A DNA stretch of 64,000 nucleotides from Candidatus Bathyarchaeota archaeon (GTDB lineage: Archaea; Thermoproteota; Bathyarchaeia; Bathyarchaeales; Bathycorpusculaceae): NCBI GenBank assembly GCA_963770845.1, contig CAVYRC010000013.1, forward strand, positions 51,628-115,627, given 5' to 3'. This document shows, piece after piece, positions 51,015 to 60,255 of the stretch. Under the pieces are notes generated by a model. The model saw nothing but the letters and a program-made list of their open reading frames with translations. It had not been told where the DNA came from and made no database searches. Made by a program: the position numbers and the translations under genes. The first letter of the stretch is position 1. Each line of letters begins with the position of its first letter.

Positions 51015-51794
51015 CTAGCTTAGTTTACTTTCGCCTTTATTCCAGATGTTTTCAAAATAGGATTCTGCAAGTTTTATGACATTATGATCGTTTGACCACA
51101 AGCTAGGCAAGGGATTTTTCTCAGATATTTGATAAGTCACTTCTTTGCCATCAAATATGTGCATACCAAACAGGTCGGAGTTGCTTGAATATTTTATTTC
51201 AATGAGCAGTTTTTTCGATAGAGATTCTGGCTTTATTGGCGGTGTTTTTCCCCCAATTTTTTGTATGATTATGCGAATTCTTACATTTTTTTGTGCCTTC
51301 TTAAAGAAATACTTATGATTAAATAACATTATATGTAGAATTCTAGCTGGCATGATAACATCTATACTTGTTTGAGCCGATTGAATTAGATTTTCGTGCA
51401 TTCTTAAAAGAAGCCTCATTTCTGAAGTAATTTTAAACTGAGAATTCTCTTCCCGAGAATCTTCTAAGTCACTAGACTGGAAATTTTTCAGAAGCGAATT
51501 GGCTTTCTTTTCAAGCCCAGCAGATTCCTCTCTTCTTTTTTGAAGCAGAATAGAAAGGCTTTCATTTATCGGGGTGGCTTCATAAATTGTTGTTTTCGCA
51601 ATAAGTCTTTCTGCCAAACCCAATTTTTCTAGTGTGAGCAATATTCGATAGGCATCTGTTCGAGCTACACTTGAAATCTTTGAGATTGTTTTTGCGTCTG
51701 CTTTTCCAAGCCTGGCAAGACTTATGTATGTTTTTGCTTGCAAAAAACTTAGTCCCAAACCCGTTAAAGTCTGAATATGTTCTTCTTGAATCAT
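51015..51794 (-). CDS. TrmB-family transcriptional regulator
   Basis: LGLS..QAK.Y..L, R...YRIL..LEKLGL wHTH; C-terminal PLD-like effector domain (IFDGKEV...FENIW). Confidence 0.85.
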   Translation of the reverse strand: MIQEEHIQTLTGLGLSFLQAKTYISLARLGKADAKTISKISSVARTDAYRILLTLEKLGLAERLIAKTTIYEATPINESLSILLQKRREESAGLEKKANSLLKNFQSSDLEDSREENSQFKITSEMRLLLRMHENLIQSAQTSIDVIMPARILHIMLFNHKYFFKKAQKNVRIRIIIQKIGGKTPPIKPESLSKKLLIEIKYSSNSDLFGMHIFDGKEVTYQISEKNPLPSLWSNDHNVIKLAESYFENIWNKGESKLS

Positions 51795-51940
51795 ATTGGA
51801 GCCTTCTAAGTTGGTACTCTTTGTTTATTTGTAGTGTAAACTTTAAGAGTTTTTGCATTGTCAGATGAGCCGCTTCTTACAAATGCTTAAGACTGTTTTT
51901 GGTCGATATTGCATTCACCGAAAAAAGGAGAAGAAAAAAA

Positions 51941-52063
51941 TTGAAATTTGTAAAAACTAAGAAACTAACTACCGCAATCGCAATAATTCTATTGATAACT
52001 ATGATTACTCCACTGGTCACTGTACCTGTTAATGCCGTGATGTCAGATGCAAGTCTCCATTGA
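51941..52063 (+). pseudogene. orphan signal peptide, remnant of a secreted protein gene
   Basis: AGGAG + TTG start, MKFVKTKKLTTAIAIILLITMITPLVTVPVNA then stop 8 codons later; leader resembles that of the 54177-56883 gene. Confidence 0.55.
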
Positions 52064-52116
52064 AGTGTGGGTTCTAATCCTTTCTTTTGTTGTTGACTAT
52101 TAATGGATATTTTCAT

Positions 52117-52218
52117 TTATAGAGTAACTTTCAAGTTAGCTTTGTCATAGATTTCTTTCATTCTTTCCGGTGAGTAATTCAAGTAATGTTTTGCTAAGAA
52201 TACAGCCTTATTCCCGAG
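52117..52218 (-). mobile_element. tyrosine integrase C-terminal relic (retains catalytic-position Tyr)
   Basis: LGNKAVFLAKHYLNYSPERMKEIYDKANLKVTL*; no start codon or upstream domain. Confidence 0.6.
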
Positions 52219-52276
52219 CTACAAATATTTTTAAGAGTAGCGGGCGAAATACTGAATATAGGGAGAAGTTAGGATT

Positions 52277-52780
52277 ATGTCTCTTCTTGATGTGATTTTA
52301 AGTCGACGAAGTATTAGAAAATATGAAAACAAAAAAATACCTCAAGAAATATTGCAACAAATTCTTGAAGCAGGTAGACAGGCCCCTTCAGCTGTTAACA
52401 GACAGCCCTTTCGTTTTGTCGTCGTGAAGGATTGCGAAATAATGAAGGACTTGTGTGATAATTTGATTACCCGTTTTGTCAAATATGCCCCTGTCGCAAT
52501 TGTTGGGTGTGCAGATGTAAAATCGCTCTTGACTGGGAAGTGGGCTGTTGTTGACACTACTATTGCTATGCAGAATATGGTTATTGCCGCATGGGCTTTA
52601 GGGATCGGTTCATGTTGGATAGGAGCTTGTAACGAAGAAAAAGTAAAGAAATTACTAGAAATCCCTGACAAATGGAAAGTTGTAGCTTTGGTAACGCTTG
52701 GTTATCCTGCCGAGCAACCGAAACCAAAAAAGAAGAAACCTATAGAGGATTTATTTAATTTCAACAGTTTTCAGAGCTAA
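52277..52780 (+). CDS. nitroreductase family protein
   Basis: RRSIRKY, APSAVNRQP, QNMVIAAWALGIGSCWIG, LGYP. Confidence 0.92.
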   Translation: MSLLDVILSRRSIRKYENKKIPQEILQQILEAGRQAPSAVNRQPFRFVVVKDCEIMKDLCDNLITRFVKYAPVAIVGCADVKSLLTGKWAVVDTTIAMQNMVIAAWALGIGSCWIGACNEEKVKKLLEIPDKWKVVALVTLGYPAEQPKPKKKKPIEDLFNFNSFQS

Positions 52781-52817
52781 GACGCGAGTTATCCAGATTT
52801 CTATTTTCTAAAATGAA

Positions 52818-52911
52818 TGCTTTATCAGATTTCTCTCAGTAATCTAACACCTTGTGGATGCTTAGCTAAAACACCTTTAGGGGCTATTCCTTGAAAGATG
52901 TCAATGTATCC
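52818..52911 (-). mobile_element. second degenerate tyrosine integrase C-terminal relic
   Basis: GYIDIFQGIAPKGVLAKH-PQGVRLLREI then shifted DKA; same LAKH...EI(Y)DKA signature, Tyr deleted. Confidence 0.55.
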
Positions 52912-52988
52912 ATCAAGTTCCCTCATAATCAATCGGGCATGATTTAGTTTCAGAATTAAGGAGACAATTTCTGGAGTGATCAATTAGG

Positions 52989-53909
52989 CTAAGTTGATAG
53001 GCGCTTAAATCGTTTTATTGCCGACCCAACCAGAAGCACAAAGGCAAGCAAGGGCAAAATTGTTAACCACGAAAACTCTGGAACCGACGGAGTTGGCGTT
53101 GGTGATGCAATAGATGATGCTGATGGAGTAGGAGGCTCTGATGGAGCAGGGGTTTGTGTTTTTGTTGGTGTTGGTGTAACGGGAAGGTCATAAACACCGA
53201 TTGGATTGCTCCTTCCCTGTTTTCCGTCTCCCTCCGTATAGATAAGTGTTGTACCGCCAGCTCTGGTGAGGTTTATTTCACCACTCCAGAAGCCATTAAC
53301 AAAAGCTCCTGTAACTCCATGACCTGCATCATAGAGGTTTTCATGGACAACCAGCATAGTCGACCATGTATTTGTACCGTTGTAACTCGTGAACGTATCG
53401 TTGTACTGGTCTTCCGCTGTTATCCTGATTAGGAATGGGTCACCAACTGTTTGATGACTACTTATGTTGTCAAATCTGAAGTGGTCAAGCACTAAAGGCA
53501 AAAGTGGTCCGCTGGTATAGAATCGGTTACTGTAATAATTTTTTCCTTCTATGTTGATATAAAAAAATGTTGTGCCGCCGCCCTTGTTAAGGGTTACTTC
53601 GCCAGTCCAGACACCGTTGATAAACGCGTCAGTCAACCCAAAACTTTGAGGATAAATAGTATTTGTGATGATTAAATTGGCTGATAATGTGTTTGATCCG
53701 TTGTAGCTTGACAGTGTTTGGTTATACTGGTCTTTTGCCGTAACCGTAATGTTAAATGGAACACCAACAGCCTGAGATCCAAGGGGGTCAAAATCAAAGT
53801 GGTCAAACACTGATTCTACTGTTTGTGCAAGAACAAGTTGAACTGTAAATAGCGAAACTAAGAACAACAAGACAAGAAATCGAGCGAGAGTTTTATTCAA
53901 GTTCCCCAT
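52989..53909 (-). CDS. surface protein with two Ig-like repeats and PEF-type C-terminal sorting signal
   Basis: Signal peptide; repeats DHF.FD...Q.VG.PF.I..TA.DQYN.T..SYNG; PT linker; VPEF + TM + basic tail. Confidence 0.85.
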   Translation of the reverse strand: MGNLNKTLARFLVLLFLVSLFTVQLVLAQTVESVFDHFDFDPLGSQAVGVPFNITVTAKDQYNQTLSSYNGSNTLSANLIITNTIYPQSFGLTDAFINGVWTGEVTLNKGGGTTFFYINIEGKNYYSNRFYTSGPLLPLVLDHFRFDNISSHQTVGDPFLIRITAEDQYNDTFTSYNGTNTWSTMLVVHENLYDAGHGVTGAFVNGFWSGEINLTRAGGTTLIYTEGDGKQGRSNPIGVYDLPVTPTPTKTQTPAPSEPPTPSASSIASPTPTPSVPEFSWLTILPLLAFVLLVGSAIKRFKRLST

Positions 53910-54176
53910 GATTATTCTAAGAAACGGTTTTTAATAAAAGCCTGTTCGTCAAAAAAGACGGCTTCGATGTTATGACAACAAATTAAGAGAAAAGTCAAGG
54001 GTTTGCTGGGGCTCTGGAACCGAAATAGGAAGAATTTTTCTTTAGGAGAAAAGAAAAACGCAAACAAATACGATGAATGCAAACATCGTAAATGAGAACC
54101 AGAAGCCTTCTCAGCCCCAGTTGATTTTCCAAAAAACTAAAAAAGGGAGGGAAAATAGATCCCATTGATTTGCACC

Positions 54177-56883
54177 TTATGGCCGTTTTTTCATCATCAC
54201 TATGGCTAGCATAACTAGCACTATAATGATTAAGACAAACAGTCCAGCAATTGCCGGTAGGAAATATTGATCAGCCATAGATTGAGCCTGTGTTGGAGCT
54301 GGTGTTGCTGTTGCTGTTGGTTCTCCTGCGTAGAATGAGGTTGAGGCTGATGTTGGCCAGTATGAGTTAGAGCCGTCGAAGCTGGCGTAGAGTGTATAGT
54401 CGCCTGAGATGTCTGGTGTCCATGTGTAACCGAATATTCCACTAGGAGTACTTACTGTGGTGCCGATTGCTCGGTAGTTGCCGTTTTGGTCAAGAACGCT
54501 CAATGTGACCGGAACGCCTGTTACGTCGGTTGGCATCGGCTGGTCCTGATAGACATGCTCCATAAATTTGCTCTGGCTTGCATCTGAGATGCATGGTACG
54601 CCGTTGGGGAAGTTCTTTGCAACTTCAGATTGTGCAACGCCTGCTGAAACATCGGTTATGCTGCCTGTGATGCGTATCGGTGTGCCAGTGGTTACTCCAA
54701 GGTCAGGGGCATTAACTGTTATCTTTGTGGGTCCCTTGCCGAAAGCGTAAATTTGGTTGTCGTAGGCGTTTAGTGATAGTAAGACGCCGTTTGCGATTGC
54801 TACTGAGCGGATGTAGGCGCCCAGTTCGCTCCAAGCCAGTGAGCCGTCGGTCATGTTTATAGCTAATAGTTGTCCTCCGTGGAAGAGTGGCGGGTTGTAT
54901 TCGTGTCCGATTGCTAGGTATGCGACTTCTGGTGTGTAGGCTTGCGAGCTGAAGACCCAGAGTGGCCAGGTGCCGTATGGTGTTTCTATGCCTGAGCCGC
55001 CGATTAGGCTGGTGGTGTTGGTGTACCACATTTCTTGGCCAGTTTTTCCGTTGTATGCCCAGATGTCTCCGCCTAAACCGAAGAGAAGCAGTGTGCCGTT
55101 AACTGGTGCGGCTTTAAAGCCAAATGTGTCGAAGGTGTTTGTAGTGCCGGAGGGAGTATCGAGGGTTGATGACCATACTTTCTGGCCGGTGCGGATATTG
55201 AAGGCGTCAATTTTGTTGTTAACCACGTTGGCTATCGCTCTGTAGCCGTCGATGTTACAGCTGGTTGTTCTGGTATAGGGTAGCAGGGATTGGTAGCCAT
55301 CTGCGTATGTGAAGTTCTTGCACATCAAGATGTCGCCTGTTGTGTCATCCATGCTAGCTAACTACCAGCCAACCGGATGTTTCGTCTCCGCCGCCTTGCA
55401 TGATGGTGTATCCGCCTGTGAGTACTACTGCGTCGCCGCCGAGTGGGTTGATTGCATCCATAGCGAGTGCTGGGCTGATGGTTTTGCCGTCTATTTCAGT
55501 GGGTACTGGTTTCGCCCACATAACACCTATACCGAAGTCAATTGCGGTATTTGCTGCTGGAGACCATCCAAAACCGTTGCCGAGTGCTTGTGAGAAGTTA
55601 AAGCAACATAGGACAGGGTGATTTGCAGTGATGTTTACTGAGTCTTTGATAGGTGCAGAGCCGAATGATGGAGCCGGACCGTAGGTGTTAATTGTTCCGA
55701 CTGTGCTATTGATGTAGTAGCCAATCAAGCTACCATATGAGTCTTCCTTGATACTCATCGATGCCCCGTTGACGATGCTTAGCACATACTGGCCAGTTTC
55801 AGCGGAGTATAGGTTGTATGTTGTGCGTCCGCCTGTACTTTGGATCAGTTTTCCGCCGGTTTCTGATGCAGGCAAGTTACCTGAGGTCCAAATGTAGGGG
55901 CCAATTACGCCGTACATGTTTGGAGTCTTCCACTGCGTCGTCATTCCGCATCTTAGGACGGAGGTTGTGTTGATTTTCCATAGTGTTTCGCCTGTGTAGA
56001 GGTCTGTGCAGACTATGCCGTTTGAGTAGCCTGTGGTTTCTGGGTAATATGTAGAATACATTTTGCCGTTCATAATTACTGGTGCATACTGTGGCCAGTA
56101 CTGTCTTGTTGACCAGTAACTGCCTGTGTCTTCGGTTCCGCCTGCGCTGCCGCCTACGACGCCGCCCGCGCCCCAGGTTTTAGTCCAGAGGATGTGTCCA
56201 GATGTTACCGATGGTGTAAAAGGGTTACATAGGCTGCTGACGTTGTATGCGCCGGTTGAGGCAAAGGTTATGGTCCCTAGTCCAAGCCAGGGTCCCATAA
56301 TCTTATACCAGTTCTGAACGTTCTGAGCTGAAACTGGTGTTTCCCAGTAGCTTGTTGGCAGTGGAGTCAATGGGTATGTCGTTTGTATTATTGGTTCTTC
56401 TTGAACGACAAGTGTGTAGACTATGCTTTCGCTTGGGTCTTCTATGAGCCCGCCATTAGTTGGTGGGCCGAATCCGAACCCTGAGCTACCCGCAGTGACT
56501 TGTCCGCCGTAGAACATTTGGAAGGCCCAATTACCAACTATGTCTGGTACGAAGCTGAAGTATGTTCCTCCGGTTGTATCGCCAGTGTATGGACCCATTG
56601 TTTTGACGTTACCGTTTGGATCGGTGATCTTAACTGTCATATTTACTGGTTGGCTGCTGTCAATGAGCGGTGTTGCCAGGTAGAAGTTGACGCTGACTGT
56701 TTGCCCGACGCCGATTGGGTTAGGTGCTACATTGATTTTTGCATAGGTTGAAATATGAGTGCCAGCTGGAATATTTTGCTGGCCGCTTGCAAATGGTAAT
56801 GGTGCTACAAATATAGAAGCTACAATGCAAATGATTAATAACGTAGTCATTGTTGCTAAAGTTTTTTTAGCATTTTTTTTCAA
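54177..56883 (-). CDS. large secreted PQQ-like beta-propeller repeat surface protein (frameshift near 55353)
   Basis: Signal peptide, repeats CTDLYTGETLW / AFNIRTGQKVW / AYNGKTGQEMW / AINMTDGSLAW, YDNQIYAFGKGP, C-terminal Ig-like domain, TM and KKRP. Confidence 0.88.
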
Positions 56884-57189
56884 TTTTGTTTTTCTCCTTA
56901 ATTTCAGTGATTTTGCTACTCTGATTTTTCAGTATTTATGTTTTGTCAGAATATCAAAAATATTGACATAAACTTCAGTATTTTCGCATTAATTCCGAAA
57001 ATATCACCATAATTTTTGTATTAATAAAAACATTACAGGTCACAGTGCAAGTTAATCCAAAATCTTCAATCTGATTTAATTACGAAGAAATAAAGTCTCC
57101 CAACCATGGTATTAATTGGAAAAATGAATTTAGGTAACCCCGAATGATATTATAAGCTCAGCCCTAAACTACACAAGTCATCAATACGG

Positions 57190-58171
57190 ATGGATAGTAA
57201 TAGATAAAGAAATTGACGAGATTGACGCTAGAATTATAGAAAATCTACTGGCAGATGCAAGAAAAAGTTTTATTGAAATTGCACAGGAATGTAATTTATC
57301 CGTTACTACAATATGGGAACGCTTTAGGAAACTTGCAAATGCAGGAATAATCACCGGTTCAACTATTCTAGTAAATCACAGAGTTTTGGGTAGCAAGATG
57401 ACATGTAGTGTTATAGTGGCTGTCTATAAAAATGAAATCAAACATGTCTTTGAATATATTCAAAAACTGCCTTTCAAAATAGTGTTATTATATCAAGATC
57501 CAAAAAATCGCATTGGTCTTATTGTTGGTCTGTGTCACCCAGATGACCTAGGAAAGTTGAAAGAAAGCATAAAAAGGAACACGTTTGTTACCGATGTAAG
57601 GATTGACGTTTGGACTGGCATTAAGAATCTAATTTCGAATGTGGAGATAGGACAACAACAAGGTAATAAAAAAAGTAACATTGAACTATTTGAAGAACAT
57701 ATCATTGAAGGGTATGACTTAGACGACATTGACTATCGACTGATTGATGCTTTAATTCTGAATAGTATGCAGCCATTTGGCAAACTTTCAGAACAGATAG
57801 GCATTTCAGTCAACACCGTATCGAGAAGGTACAAGAGATTGATCGATTGTGGTGTAATTAAATCTACAATTCAAGTCAATGTTCTCAAACTTGGCTATTG
57901 TGCAAATGTCAGTTTTGCCTTGTCTTTTTCGTCCCAAGTTGACCCAAGTGACTTGATAAAAGAAGTTCTAGCAATAAAAAATAATTATTTAACAATAAAA
58001 GTAAGTGGTCCATACGATTTGATTATTCATGTACTATTAAGAGACCTCAATCAATTACTTCTTACCCAGAAACAGATTGCAGATTTACCCGGGATATCAA
58101 GGTTTGAAATGCTGATATATCCTGCTATTCCACCGTGGCCCGTCAGCGGCGGTTATATATCGACATTTTAG
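57190..58171 (+). CDS. double-length Lrp/AsnC regulator (two HTH-RAM units)
   Basis: In-frame from ~57203 IDEIDARIIENLLADARKSF.EIA and second LDDIDYRLI...FGKLSEQIGIS; start uncertain (ATG 57190 out of frame). Confidence 0.85.
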
Positions 58172-58286: not shown

Positions 58287-58393
58287 TGGTGCCGAGGGCA
58301 GGGTTTGAACATGCGACGACTCGGTCTTCAGCTTCGCCCTCAGTCACGATAAGTAACTGGGTCGAGCGCTCTCCCAGGCTGAGCTACCTCGGC
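58287..58393 (-). tRNA. tRNA-Phe(GAA) with 30-nt non-canonical intron (58333-58362, position 30/31), CCA encoded
   Basis: GCCGAGG acceptor, GCTC/GAGC D arm, CTCG^G-CTGAAGA-CCGAG after splicing, TTCAAA T loop, ACCA end; BHB-like junction. Confidence 0.92.
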
Positions 58394-58487: not shown

Positions 58488-59105
58488 TTAGAAGGTTAAT
58501 TTGTTGTAGTGCTTAGGGTTTGAAAACCCTATTTTGTCTATCCATAGCTTGAGCATTTCAGAACCATACAATGCAACATGGTATCCCTCTTTGATATCGC
58601 CACGTAATCGAGCTCTGAAACCATTCTGTTGTAAAACTTCACTTAATTGGTTCGCTAGTACGTTACTGCACGTTCTAAGTTCAATTGTTGGGTAGATTGG
58701 GGCGGTATAGGTTTTCTTGCTGAAGAACAATGTGCCATCTGTATCCATTATCCCACGTATCGTCCATTTGCAATGAAACCACCCTTCGTTTAGTATCAAA
58801 GCGGGGATTGTTACTGTATGAGATTTTCCATTTCCTGTTGGAATGCCTATGTTTTGAAGTAACCTGTAGGCATCTTTTGACTGAAGACGCCACCTTAACC
58901 CTCTTTGATGAGTTCTTAAGGAATACGGTTTCTTTCCAAACAGATTATTGGAAATGAATGAAAGATAGTTGAAGTAATCAACGTCTAGTTTTGGGTCGCC
59001 AGTTAATTCAACCCTGTAACGTGAACCATCCGTCCATAAATTACCATTTCCAATCATTGCTCCGACGAATTCGCAAAGTTCAGGATCAATTTTAATGACC
59101 GTCAT
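58488..59105 (-). CDS. free-standing two-motif LAGLIDADG homing-endonuclease-like protein
   Basis: ELCEFVGAMIGNG and WTIRGIMDTDG motifs, IGFSNPKH tail; no intein splice residues. Confidence 0.85.
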   Translation of the reverse strand: MTVIKIDPELCEFVGAMIGNGNLWTDGSRYRVELTGDPKLDVDYFNYLSFISNNLFGKKPYSLRTHQRGLRWRLQSKDAYRLLQNIGIPTGNGKSHTVTIPALILNEGWFHCKWTIRGIMDTDGTLFFSKKTYTAPIYPTIELRTCSNVLANQLSEVLQQNGFRARLRGDIKEGYHVALYGSEMLKLWIDKIGFSNPKHYNKLTF

Positions 59106-59322
59106 CACTGCAACGTTGAAGTTACCTATATTTGAAATATGCTCTACAAACAGGATTCTAGAATCCATGTGTACAATAGCAATTGGTCAAGTGCTTTTCA
59201 AAGCTGAGATGTACTGAAAACCTGAGTGCGAATTAATCACGTTTACTTAATAATTTCCGAAGACGTTTACAACTCTTAACGGAATATTGTGTGGGCTCTT
59301 GAAAAAAAAGAATAATTAATGT

Positions 59323-59895
59323 TTAATAATTTTCTGTCCAGACTTCAAAGTAAGCTTTTGGGTGAGCGCATGTTGGGCACTTTTCTGGTGCTGAAGTCCC
59401 TTCAATTACTAAACCGCAGTTCCTGCATTTCCATTTAGTCGGTGCATCCTTCACAAACACTTTACCGTTCTGCAGACTCTCAACCAGTTTGTTGTAACGA
59501 CGTTCATGGTAGGCTTCAACTTTGGCAACACTCCGAAAAGTCCAAGCTACATCCTTGAAACCTTCTTTTTCAGCGATGTCGCCAAAGCTAGGGTAAATTG
59601 ACCCCCACTCAGCTTTCTCGCCGGCGGCTGCAGCCTTAAGATTCTCAACGGTTGCGCTCATAACACCCGCGGGGTAAGTTGCTTTAATCTCAACCATTCC
59701 GCCTTTGAGGTGTTTAAAGAAAAGCTCCGCATGCTCCTTTTCGTTGGCAGCGGTCTCCTCGAAGATTGCGCCAATTTGCTCATATCCTTCTTTTTTGGCT
59801 ATGCTCGCAAAGAATGTGTAGCGGTTACGTGCTTGGGATTCCCCTGCAAATGCAGTTAAAAGGTTTTTTTCTGTTTGACTTCCAATAAAATCCAT
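59323..59895 (-). CDS. rbr: rubrerythrin
   Basis: AFAGESQARNRY, EKEH, EAYH, WKCRNCG...CPTCAHP. Confidence 0.95.
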   Translation of the reverse strand: MDFIGSQTEKNLLTAFAGESQARNRYTFFASIAKKEGYEQIGAIFEETAANEKEHAELFFKHLKGGMVEIKATYPAGVMSATVENLKAAAAGEKAEWGSIYPSFGDIAEKEGFKDVAWTFRSVAKVEAYHERRYNKLVESLQNGKVFVKDAPTKWKCRNCGLVIEGTSAPEKCPTCAHPKAYFEVWTENY

Positions 59896-60000
59896 ACGAT
59901 TTAACTCCTACCTTTTGATATCTAAAACTGAAATAAAAGTGTTCCCAGCTTCTTCTTTTTAGATGTCAATGCTTTTATTTTCCATCCACGCATTAGTTGT

Positions 60001-60071
60001 TTTGCCGAATGATGAGAAGGCATTAGATTGACAATTGTTGGATGAAAATTCAGAGTTACTCAGACGGCAAA
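60001..60071 (+). ncRNA. box C/D 2'-O-methylation guide sRNA
   Basis: Terminal stem TTTGCCG/CGGCAAA, C box ATGATGA (60009-15), D' TTGA (60028-31), C' TGGATGA (60039-45), D CAGA (60061-64); 12- and 15-nt guides. Confidence 0.8.
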
Positions 60072-60255
60072 GGGTGAATAACTTTATGGGTGTGGTAACC
60101 CGTAAGGTTATTCACCTGAAGGAATCTCTTAAATAAAGACCAAATGAGAAAGTTCACAAGAGACTACAAATTATCTAACAGTTCCCCAAAAAATTCTTTT
60201 TAGCCTAAATATTAGAATGGGACACCATAATATTTTCATTAAGAAAATTTCCAAC

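Follow-up and report, generated by a model that had tools for sequence, protein, structure and literature searches.

The window analysed here is a 64-kb stretch of an archaeal metagenome-assembled genome (MAG) whose nearest relatives are Bathyarchaeia of soil, peat and wetland metagenomes. At 60001-60071 on the plus strand it holds a 71-nt stretch in which box motifs follow one another in the order C-D'-C'-D, with a terminal stem closing box C and box D. The stretch is intergenic, flanked on one side by a rubrerythrin gene (59323-59895, minus strand; Pfam) and on the other by a minus-strand ORF of 102 aa, for which Pfam gave no family match. Its parts, together with a motif upstream, are as follows.

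59971-59978, plus strand: putative archaeal TATA box (GCTTTTAT), about 26 nt ahead of the base that opens the stem
60001-60007, plus strand: terminal stem, 5' strand TTTGCCG, pairing with 60065-60071
60009-60015, plus strand: box C, AUGAUGA, which fits RUGAUGA
60016-60027, plus strand: D' spacer, 12 nt, with the guide core AAGGCAUU at 60017-60024 and U60023 as the N+5 nucleotide
60028-60031, plus strand: box D', UUGA, degenerate, its GA invariant in the alignment
60032-60038, plus strand: loop of 7 nt between boxes D' and C'
60039-60045, plus strand: box C', UGGAUGA, degenerate, with GATGA kept in most homologues
60046-60060, plus strand: D spacer, 15 nt, with the guide core UCAGAGUUACU at 60050-60060 and U60056 as the N+5 nucleotide
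60061-60064, plus strand: box D, CAGA, a variant of CUGA in which C and GA are conserved
60065-60071, plus strand: terminal stem, 3' strand CGGCAAA, partner of 60001-60007

No other place in the window matches a relaxed C/D pattern with a stem, and box C is absent on the opposite strand of 60001-60071. Rfam searches, run at gathering and at permissive settings, gave no family at threshold; the permissive run returned generic C/D snoRNA families only, all sub-threshold (E 0.05-5), the best being SNORD45 with 22 bits against a threshold of 42. The minimum-free-energy fold of the bare RNA is unremarkable (z -1.5), as expected of an RNA that is scaffolded by proteins. The window also contains an archaeal RNase P RNA and a free-standing minus-strand ORF (58488-59168) with a weak match to LAGLIDADG_3 (E 7.5e-4, below the Pfam cut-off) that adjoins an intron-bearing tRNA at 58290-58393.

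The dual-guide C-D'-C'-D layout had been proposed for this interval in an earlier note on the same DNA, and it is present there, with a terminal stem that covaries among homologues. Two details of that reading do not hold: box D, taken for CUGA, is CAGA, and the spacer between C' and D, given as 12 nt, measures 15 nt. The 7-bp terminal stem described in the note does form in this genome, but only its inner 4-5 bp are general across relatives, the outer two of the seven being particular to this genome.

Both departures from the textbook form recur in relatives. At the second position of box D all of CAGA, CGGA, CTGA, CCGA and TTGA occur, and the GA that enters the sheared pairs is retained despite CAGA. 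In the textbook kink-turn a U-U pair stands beside the sheared G-A pairs, a place where CAGA puts a U-A; Lilley's group is said to have found that kink-turn folding is tuned by the pair at this position. This pair (box C position 5 and box D position 2; columns 14 and 76 of alignment A1, corresponding to window positions 60013 and 60062) is highly variable across homologues, where it takes the forms U-A, U-G, C-C, C-U, A-G, A-U, G-C and C-G. The C-to-D' spacer has 12 nt, about the canonical length, and the C'-to-D spacer has 15 nt throughout the order to which this genome belongs, versus 12 nt in other families of Bathyarchaeia. The first 3-4 nt of the longer spacer, next to C', are a variable insertion, unpaired and outside the duplex, and the N+5 register is unaffected by them because it is counted from box D. 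Ye and colleagues reportedly found that archaeal guides pair over at most 10 nt with their target and that longer spacers loop out.

The earlier note had pointed to the conservation of guides and boxes among relatives as telling, and both guides are indeed conserved. With the region as query, BLAST found counterparts in 23 of the 24 genomes of the same genus as well as in several further families of the order, and among these homologues the D' string AAGGCATT and the D string TCAGAGTTA are invariant. Variation is seen in the loop, the 3-4 nt by C', the pair of bases preceding D', position 2 of boxes D and D', and the stem. Across the alignment TGA..GA of box C is invariant, with U, C, A or G at position 5; box D' occurs as TTGA, TAGA, CTGA or GCGA, varying in its first two positions and fixed in its GA. 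In the stem, 6 of the 7 pairs are altered on both sides among 50 homologues, and the covariation score of 0.248 (0.094 in shuffled alignments) was reached by none of 500 shuffles. A covariance model built on 50 homologues found exactly one copy per genome in 86 of 151 genomes sampled from the class; every one of the 33 from the MAG's own order is among them.

The proposed machinery has further parts in this genome. The motif CTTTTAT precedes the stem at a constant distance in nearly all same-genus relatives, the flanks differing, and an archaeal TATA box is expected about 26 nt upstream, the distance seen here; this conserved position suggests that GCTTTTAT is a putative TATA box with promoter function. 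The genes for Nop5 (PF01798) and fibrillarin (PF01269) lie side by side on contig 15 of the same genome, which also has two matches to the L7Ae family (PF01248).

Since the MAG (66% complete) has no 23S rRNA gene in its assembly, the targets were read on the 23S of relatives, one of them G003, a complete genome of the same genus whose 16S is 97% identical to that of the MAG. The 16S of the window's genome stands alone at a contig end; in G003 the 16S (1.566 Mb) and 23S (0.56 Mb) genes are unlinked on a single 2.35-Mb contig (L192, L022). The guide strings of the window are AAGGCATT at 60017-60024 and TCAGAGTTACT at 60050-60060, and the relatives' 23S holds AGUAACUCUGA and AAUGCCUU, 25 nt apart. 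The 23S genes of G003 and G014 (same genus) and of G040 (another family) all read GGGAGUAACUCUGACUCUCU(C/U)AAGGUAGCCAAAUGCCUUGUC, and the same target strings occur in about ten more Bathyarchaeia 23S genes. The latter came from a pattern scan of genome contigs for both guide strings. Because the two guides mirror the rRNA, the scan also caught 23S rDNA: most of its matches (34 nt) were the opposite strand of that gene and were discarded, as was a bacterial match (L112), a false positive. True sRNA matches of the scan came from Bathyarchaeia and one Wolframiiraptor contig only.

The D guide forms 11 contiguous Watson-Crick pairs with AGUAACUCUGA in the relatives' 23S, which bears out the complementarity to the helix 69 loop claimed in the earlier note. 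Opposite U60056, the fifth guide base upstream of box D, stands the second A of GUAAC (position 2028 of the G003 23S). A match of 10/10 in the guide core was attained anywhere in 16S and 23S by only 2 of 2000 shuffled D guides. The D' guide pairs less extensively: against 23S CCAAAUGCCUUG the alignment runs mismatch, pair, mismatch, eight pairs, mismatch, that is, 8 contiguous pairs and 1 past a mismatch. The mismatch, at position 3 in this order, sets A opposite A and lies two positions from the target nucleotide. That nucleotide, opposite U60023, is the third A of CCAAAUG (position 2053 of the G003 23S), 25 nt downstream of the D target. When 16S, 23S and 25 tRNAs were searched, the proposed site scored best for each guide; the D' target named in the earlier note is thus its best one, but the contiguous pairing on relatives' 23S falls short of the 9 nt that the note had taken as its threshold.

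In an ungapped alignment to the E. coli 23S rRNA, the two targets fall at 1909 and 1934 of a 2899-nt gene. The three uridines of the helix 69 loop are at 1907, 1911 and 1913 of that gene and are the well-known pseudouridines 1911, 1915 and 1917 of the standard 2904-nt numbering. This match gives an offset of +4 and hence A1913 and A1938 as the targets, in agreement with the positions to which the N+5 rule had led in the earlier note. Helix 71 is the hairpin GUCGGG...CCGAC at 1945-1961. Since A1938 takes part in the pairing AUGC/GCAU (in E. coli, AUUC/GAAU), the alignment assigns it to helix 70, on the 5' strand and immediately ahead of helix 71. Of the two helices in the note's title, then, helix 69 is right and H71 is loose.

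The placement of the yeast numbers on the yeast sequence is consistent with m5C2278, Am2280, Am2281 and Gm2288 falling on C, A, A and G. According to the literature, yeast Am2256 is guided by snR63 and Am2280/Am2281 by snR13; Am2256 equals human Am3739 (U46), and Am2281 equals human Am3764 (U15) and Arabidopsis Am2271. The spacing of 25 nt between the two sites is the same in yeast, human and archaeal 23S. Literature numbering and this placement on the yeast sequence together support the correspondence of both archaeal targets to yeast Am2256 and Am2281, and the equivalence drawn in the earlier note, with separate yeast snoRNAs for the two sites, agrees with this. Thus snR63/SNORD46 (U46) and snR13/SNORD15 (U15) guide the homologous nucleotides, 25 nt apart, with two separate snoRNAs where the window has one sRNA. 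None of the Rfam families SNORD46, SNORD15, snR63 and snR13 matched at the gathering threshold, and no sequence kinship with snR63/U46 or snR13/U15 was detected.

Taken together, we consider it likely, with a probability of roughly 0.8, that the 71-nt stretch is an archaeal box C/D sRNA gene that guides 2'-O-methylation of both A1913 and A1938. As judged from sequence, the sRNA would be transcribed from its own TATA-type promoter, and boxes C and D, closed by the terminal stem, would fold into a kink-turn and C'/D' into a K-loop. L7Ae, Nop5 and fibrillarin would assemble on these two motifs, and each spacer would pair with nascent 23S rRNA, so that fibrillarin could methylate the 2'-OH of the nucleotide facing guide base five, counted upstream from D or D'. 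For the D guide this nucleotide would be A1913, which belongs to intersubunit bridge B2a and is the second A of GUAAC in the loop of helix 69; for the D' guide it would be A1938, the third A of CCAAAUG in helix 70, 25 nt downstream. Two nearby segments held at once may in addition aid the folding of domain IV. Among metatranscriptomes, three wetland runs share words with the 1.2-kb stretch around the sRNA; their assembled contigs cover no more than the rubrerythrin gene, from a relative with about 95% identity; they end before the sRNA and are uninformative for a 70-nt RNA.

It is much less likely, although the most serious of the alternatives, that the gene encodes a real box C/D sRNA of which only the D guide methylates (A1913), the D' guide acting as a transient folding chaperone or being a near-orphan. 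The D' duplex, with its one isolated pair beyond eight contiguous ones, fits such a division of labour, as its score was attained somewhere in rRNA by 203 of 2000 shuffled D' guides (about 10%). Orphan guides are also frequent, making up 28% in Pyrobaculum according to the literature. Moreover, other Bathyarchaeia families keep the D guide and have replaced D' by guides to the neighbouring helix 71 strand, which marks D' as the evolutionarily labile half. Yet a site this close to the D target (within 100 nt) is rare by chance, at 9 of 2000 shuffles, and the core AAGGCAUU is unchanged in all BLAST-found homologues of the order, neighbouring positions varying. The target is kept elsewhere as well: in other lineages the D' guide is AAGGCAUUUG, with 10 contiguous pairs at the same site, and one family outside Bathyarchaeia pairs there with a G-U wobble. 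It is on proximity to the D target, conservation and the AAGGCAUUUG lineages with their 10 pairs that the assignment of the D' target is founded.

The families in which D' has moved (L193-L196 and L203) direct it to the strand or the loop of helix 71 and have an unchanged D guide; an example is ACCUGACAA, pairing with UUGUCGGGU, a guide that has slid along the target region.

Both guides have published counterparts, and the novelty implied by the earlier note was overstated in this respect. Dennis et al. 2015 (PMC4644070) describe helices 68, 69 and 71 as hotspots of 2'-O-methylation, with dense predictions around A1912. In their supplement (Additional file 1), Sac-sR113 of Sulfolobus acidocaldarius and Iho-sR91 of Ignicoccus hospitalis carry UCAGAGUUAC before box D, and Sac-sR125 and Iho-sR109 of the same two species carry AAGGCAUUUG there. 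These sRNAs were identified by RNA-seq, and in the cultivated Crenarchaeota the A1913 and A1938 guides reside on separate RNAs. Like the window sRNA, sR113 and sR91 are dual-guide RNAs of about 60-70 nt with the same D guide string and register and the same predicted A1913 target. They differ in having canonical CUGA boxes and 12-nt spacers (CAGA and a 15-nt D spacer in the window), and in the other guide: D' of Sac-sR113 is unrelated to that of the window, and D' of Iho-sR91 aims at the helix 71 strand. As regards membership of the A1913-guide family, UCAGAGUUA is present with the second A of GUAAC at N+5, string and register being identical to those of sR113 and sR91. The second pair, sR125 and sR109, shares the A1938 target of the window D' guide, but has the guide in the D position with 10 contiguous pairs, and its partner D' guide is directed not to A1913 but to the 5' strand of helix 69. 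Box D of the expressed Sac-sR125 is CAGA, as in the window sRNA. The covariance model made from Bathyarchaeia recovers Sac-sR113 in two Sulfolobaceae genomes, and its Sulfolobaceae matches are sR113 and sR125 themselves.

The combination of both guides in one RNA also extends beyond Bathyarchaeia. It is found in unpublished homologues from other Thermoproteota, namely the family with the G-U wobble in its D' guide (f42) and two genomes (G254 and G276) in which the order is permuted: there D' carries the guide for helix 69 and D the one for helix 70, the reverse of the window. A circular permutation of guides of the same kind is known from Pyrobaculum sR56/sR57, and about 45% of Pyrobaculum sRNAs aim both guides at sites at most 100 nt apart (Lui et al. 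2018). The picture is that of an old family of A1913 guides in which the target of the second guide shifts about within helices 70 and 71.

With these observations, Bathyarchaeia gain a well-supported box C/D sRNA; the class is uncultured and widespread, and we found no catalogue of its box C/D sRNAs in the literature. Double guides to neighbouring sites and helix 69 as a methylation hotspot are textbook features of archaeal sRNAs, and the RNA described here is a well-conserved but ordinary guide RNA that changes no concept. The A1913 guide, often paired with an A1938 guide, spans Thermoproteota, from which it follows that two marks shared by all eukaryotes studied are, going by the archaeal predictions, old and widespread in archaea as well. 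This bears on the share of the eukaryotic rRNA methylation pattern that was inherited. The more unusual point is that the 3' end of the sRNA gene resembles an integration site of genomic islands. Two further features of the window are found there.

60072-60119, plus strand: hairpin of 20 bp immediately following the sRNA, with a predicted energy of -31 kcal/mol and no second copy in the genome
60144-60203, plus strand: remnant of an integrase N-terminus, 19 codons, beginning MRKFTRDY

In many same-genus relatives a hairpin of the same shape and of other sequence comes right after the sRNA, and in four of the relatives the hairpin is followed by a 432-aa ORF (MRKYAREW...) matching PF00589, the phage/tyrosine integrase family. 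The MRKFTRDY stub of the window starts where this ORF starts; tblastn of the relatives' integrase against the window gave no further remnant. Two other identities of the hairpin were considered and rejected, that of an H/ACA RNA, as it has neither an ACA box nor a K-turn, and that of a repeated MITE, as it is unique in the genome.

In three relatives the final 20-21 nt of the sRNA gene recur downstream as a same-strand repeat, at a distance of 6 kb in G004, 14 kb in G012 and 30 kb in G002. A conserved motif mirroring the hairpin arm stands before each downstream copy, and conserved inverted arms are thus present at both ends. An integrase lies next to the sRNA in G012 (L244, 1-14701) and in G002 (L245/L246); none was seen in the 6-kb interval of G004 (L243). 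Judging from this comparison of relatives, the 21 nt that end the sRNA gene, comprising the end of the D guide, box D and the 3' stem, probably serve as the attachment site of integrase islands in the genus, with 60072-60203 as a decayed left island end. Such a use of an sRNA gene end would be akin to that of tRNA gene ends elsewhere. We found no report in the searchable literature that links integrases with box C/D sRNA genes as an integration target. The flank beyond the right-hand repeat in G012 has no significant similarity to the flank of island-free relatives, so that the comparison with an empty site gives no proof of the excision type.

With the last 21 nt forming the direct repeat that bounds integrase islands in relatives, and relics of such an element directly beside the sRNA in the window, one could ask whether the stretch plays no part in rRNA modification today, being a dead sRNA gene or being kept mainly as an attachment site. 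We regard this as very improbable. Single-copy conservation across the class and beyond extends to the whole RNA, including the 5' half and the promoter motif, neither of which belongs to the repeat, and it holds whether or not a genome has islands. Integration into a small-RNA gene typically leaves that gene restored, as is established for tRNA genes. Still more remote is a chance array of box-like motifs in AT-rich intergenic DNA, a reading to which the short, partly degenerate boxes and the generic, sub-threshold Rfam matches might have lent themselves, but which is refuted by conservation, stem covariation, register-exact complementarity and the published homologues.

The 14-kb interval of G012 holds, besides the integrase, three large PQQ-type propeller proteins, a TrmB regulator and a radical SAM protein. 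The PQQ-type beta-propellers of this cargo (L244, 1702-13997) carry Ig-like tails. A cassette of the same kind occupies 51015-58171 of the window, where the earlier note had flagged it beside an integration relic at tRNA-Phe. This suggests that PQQ-propeller cassettes travel on integrase islands.
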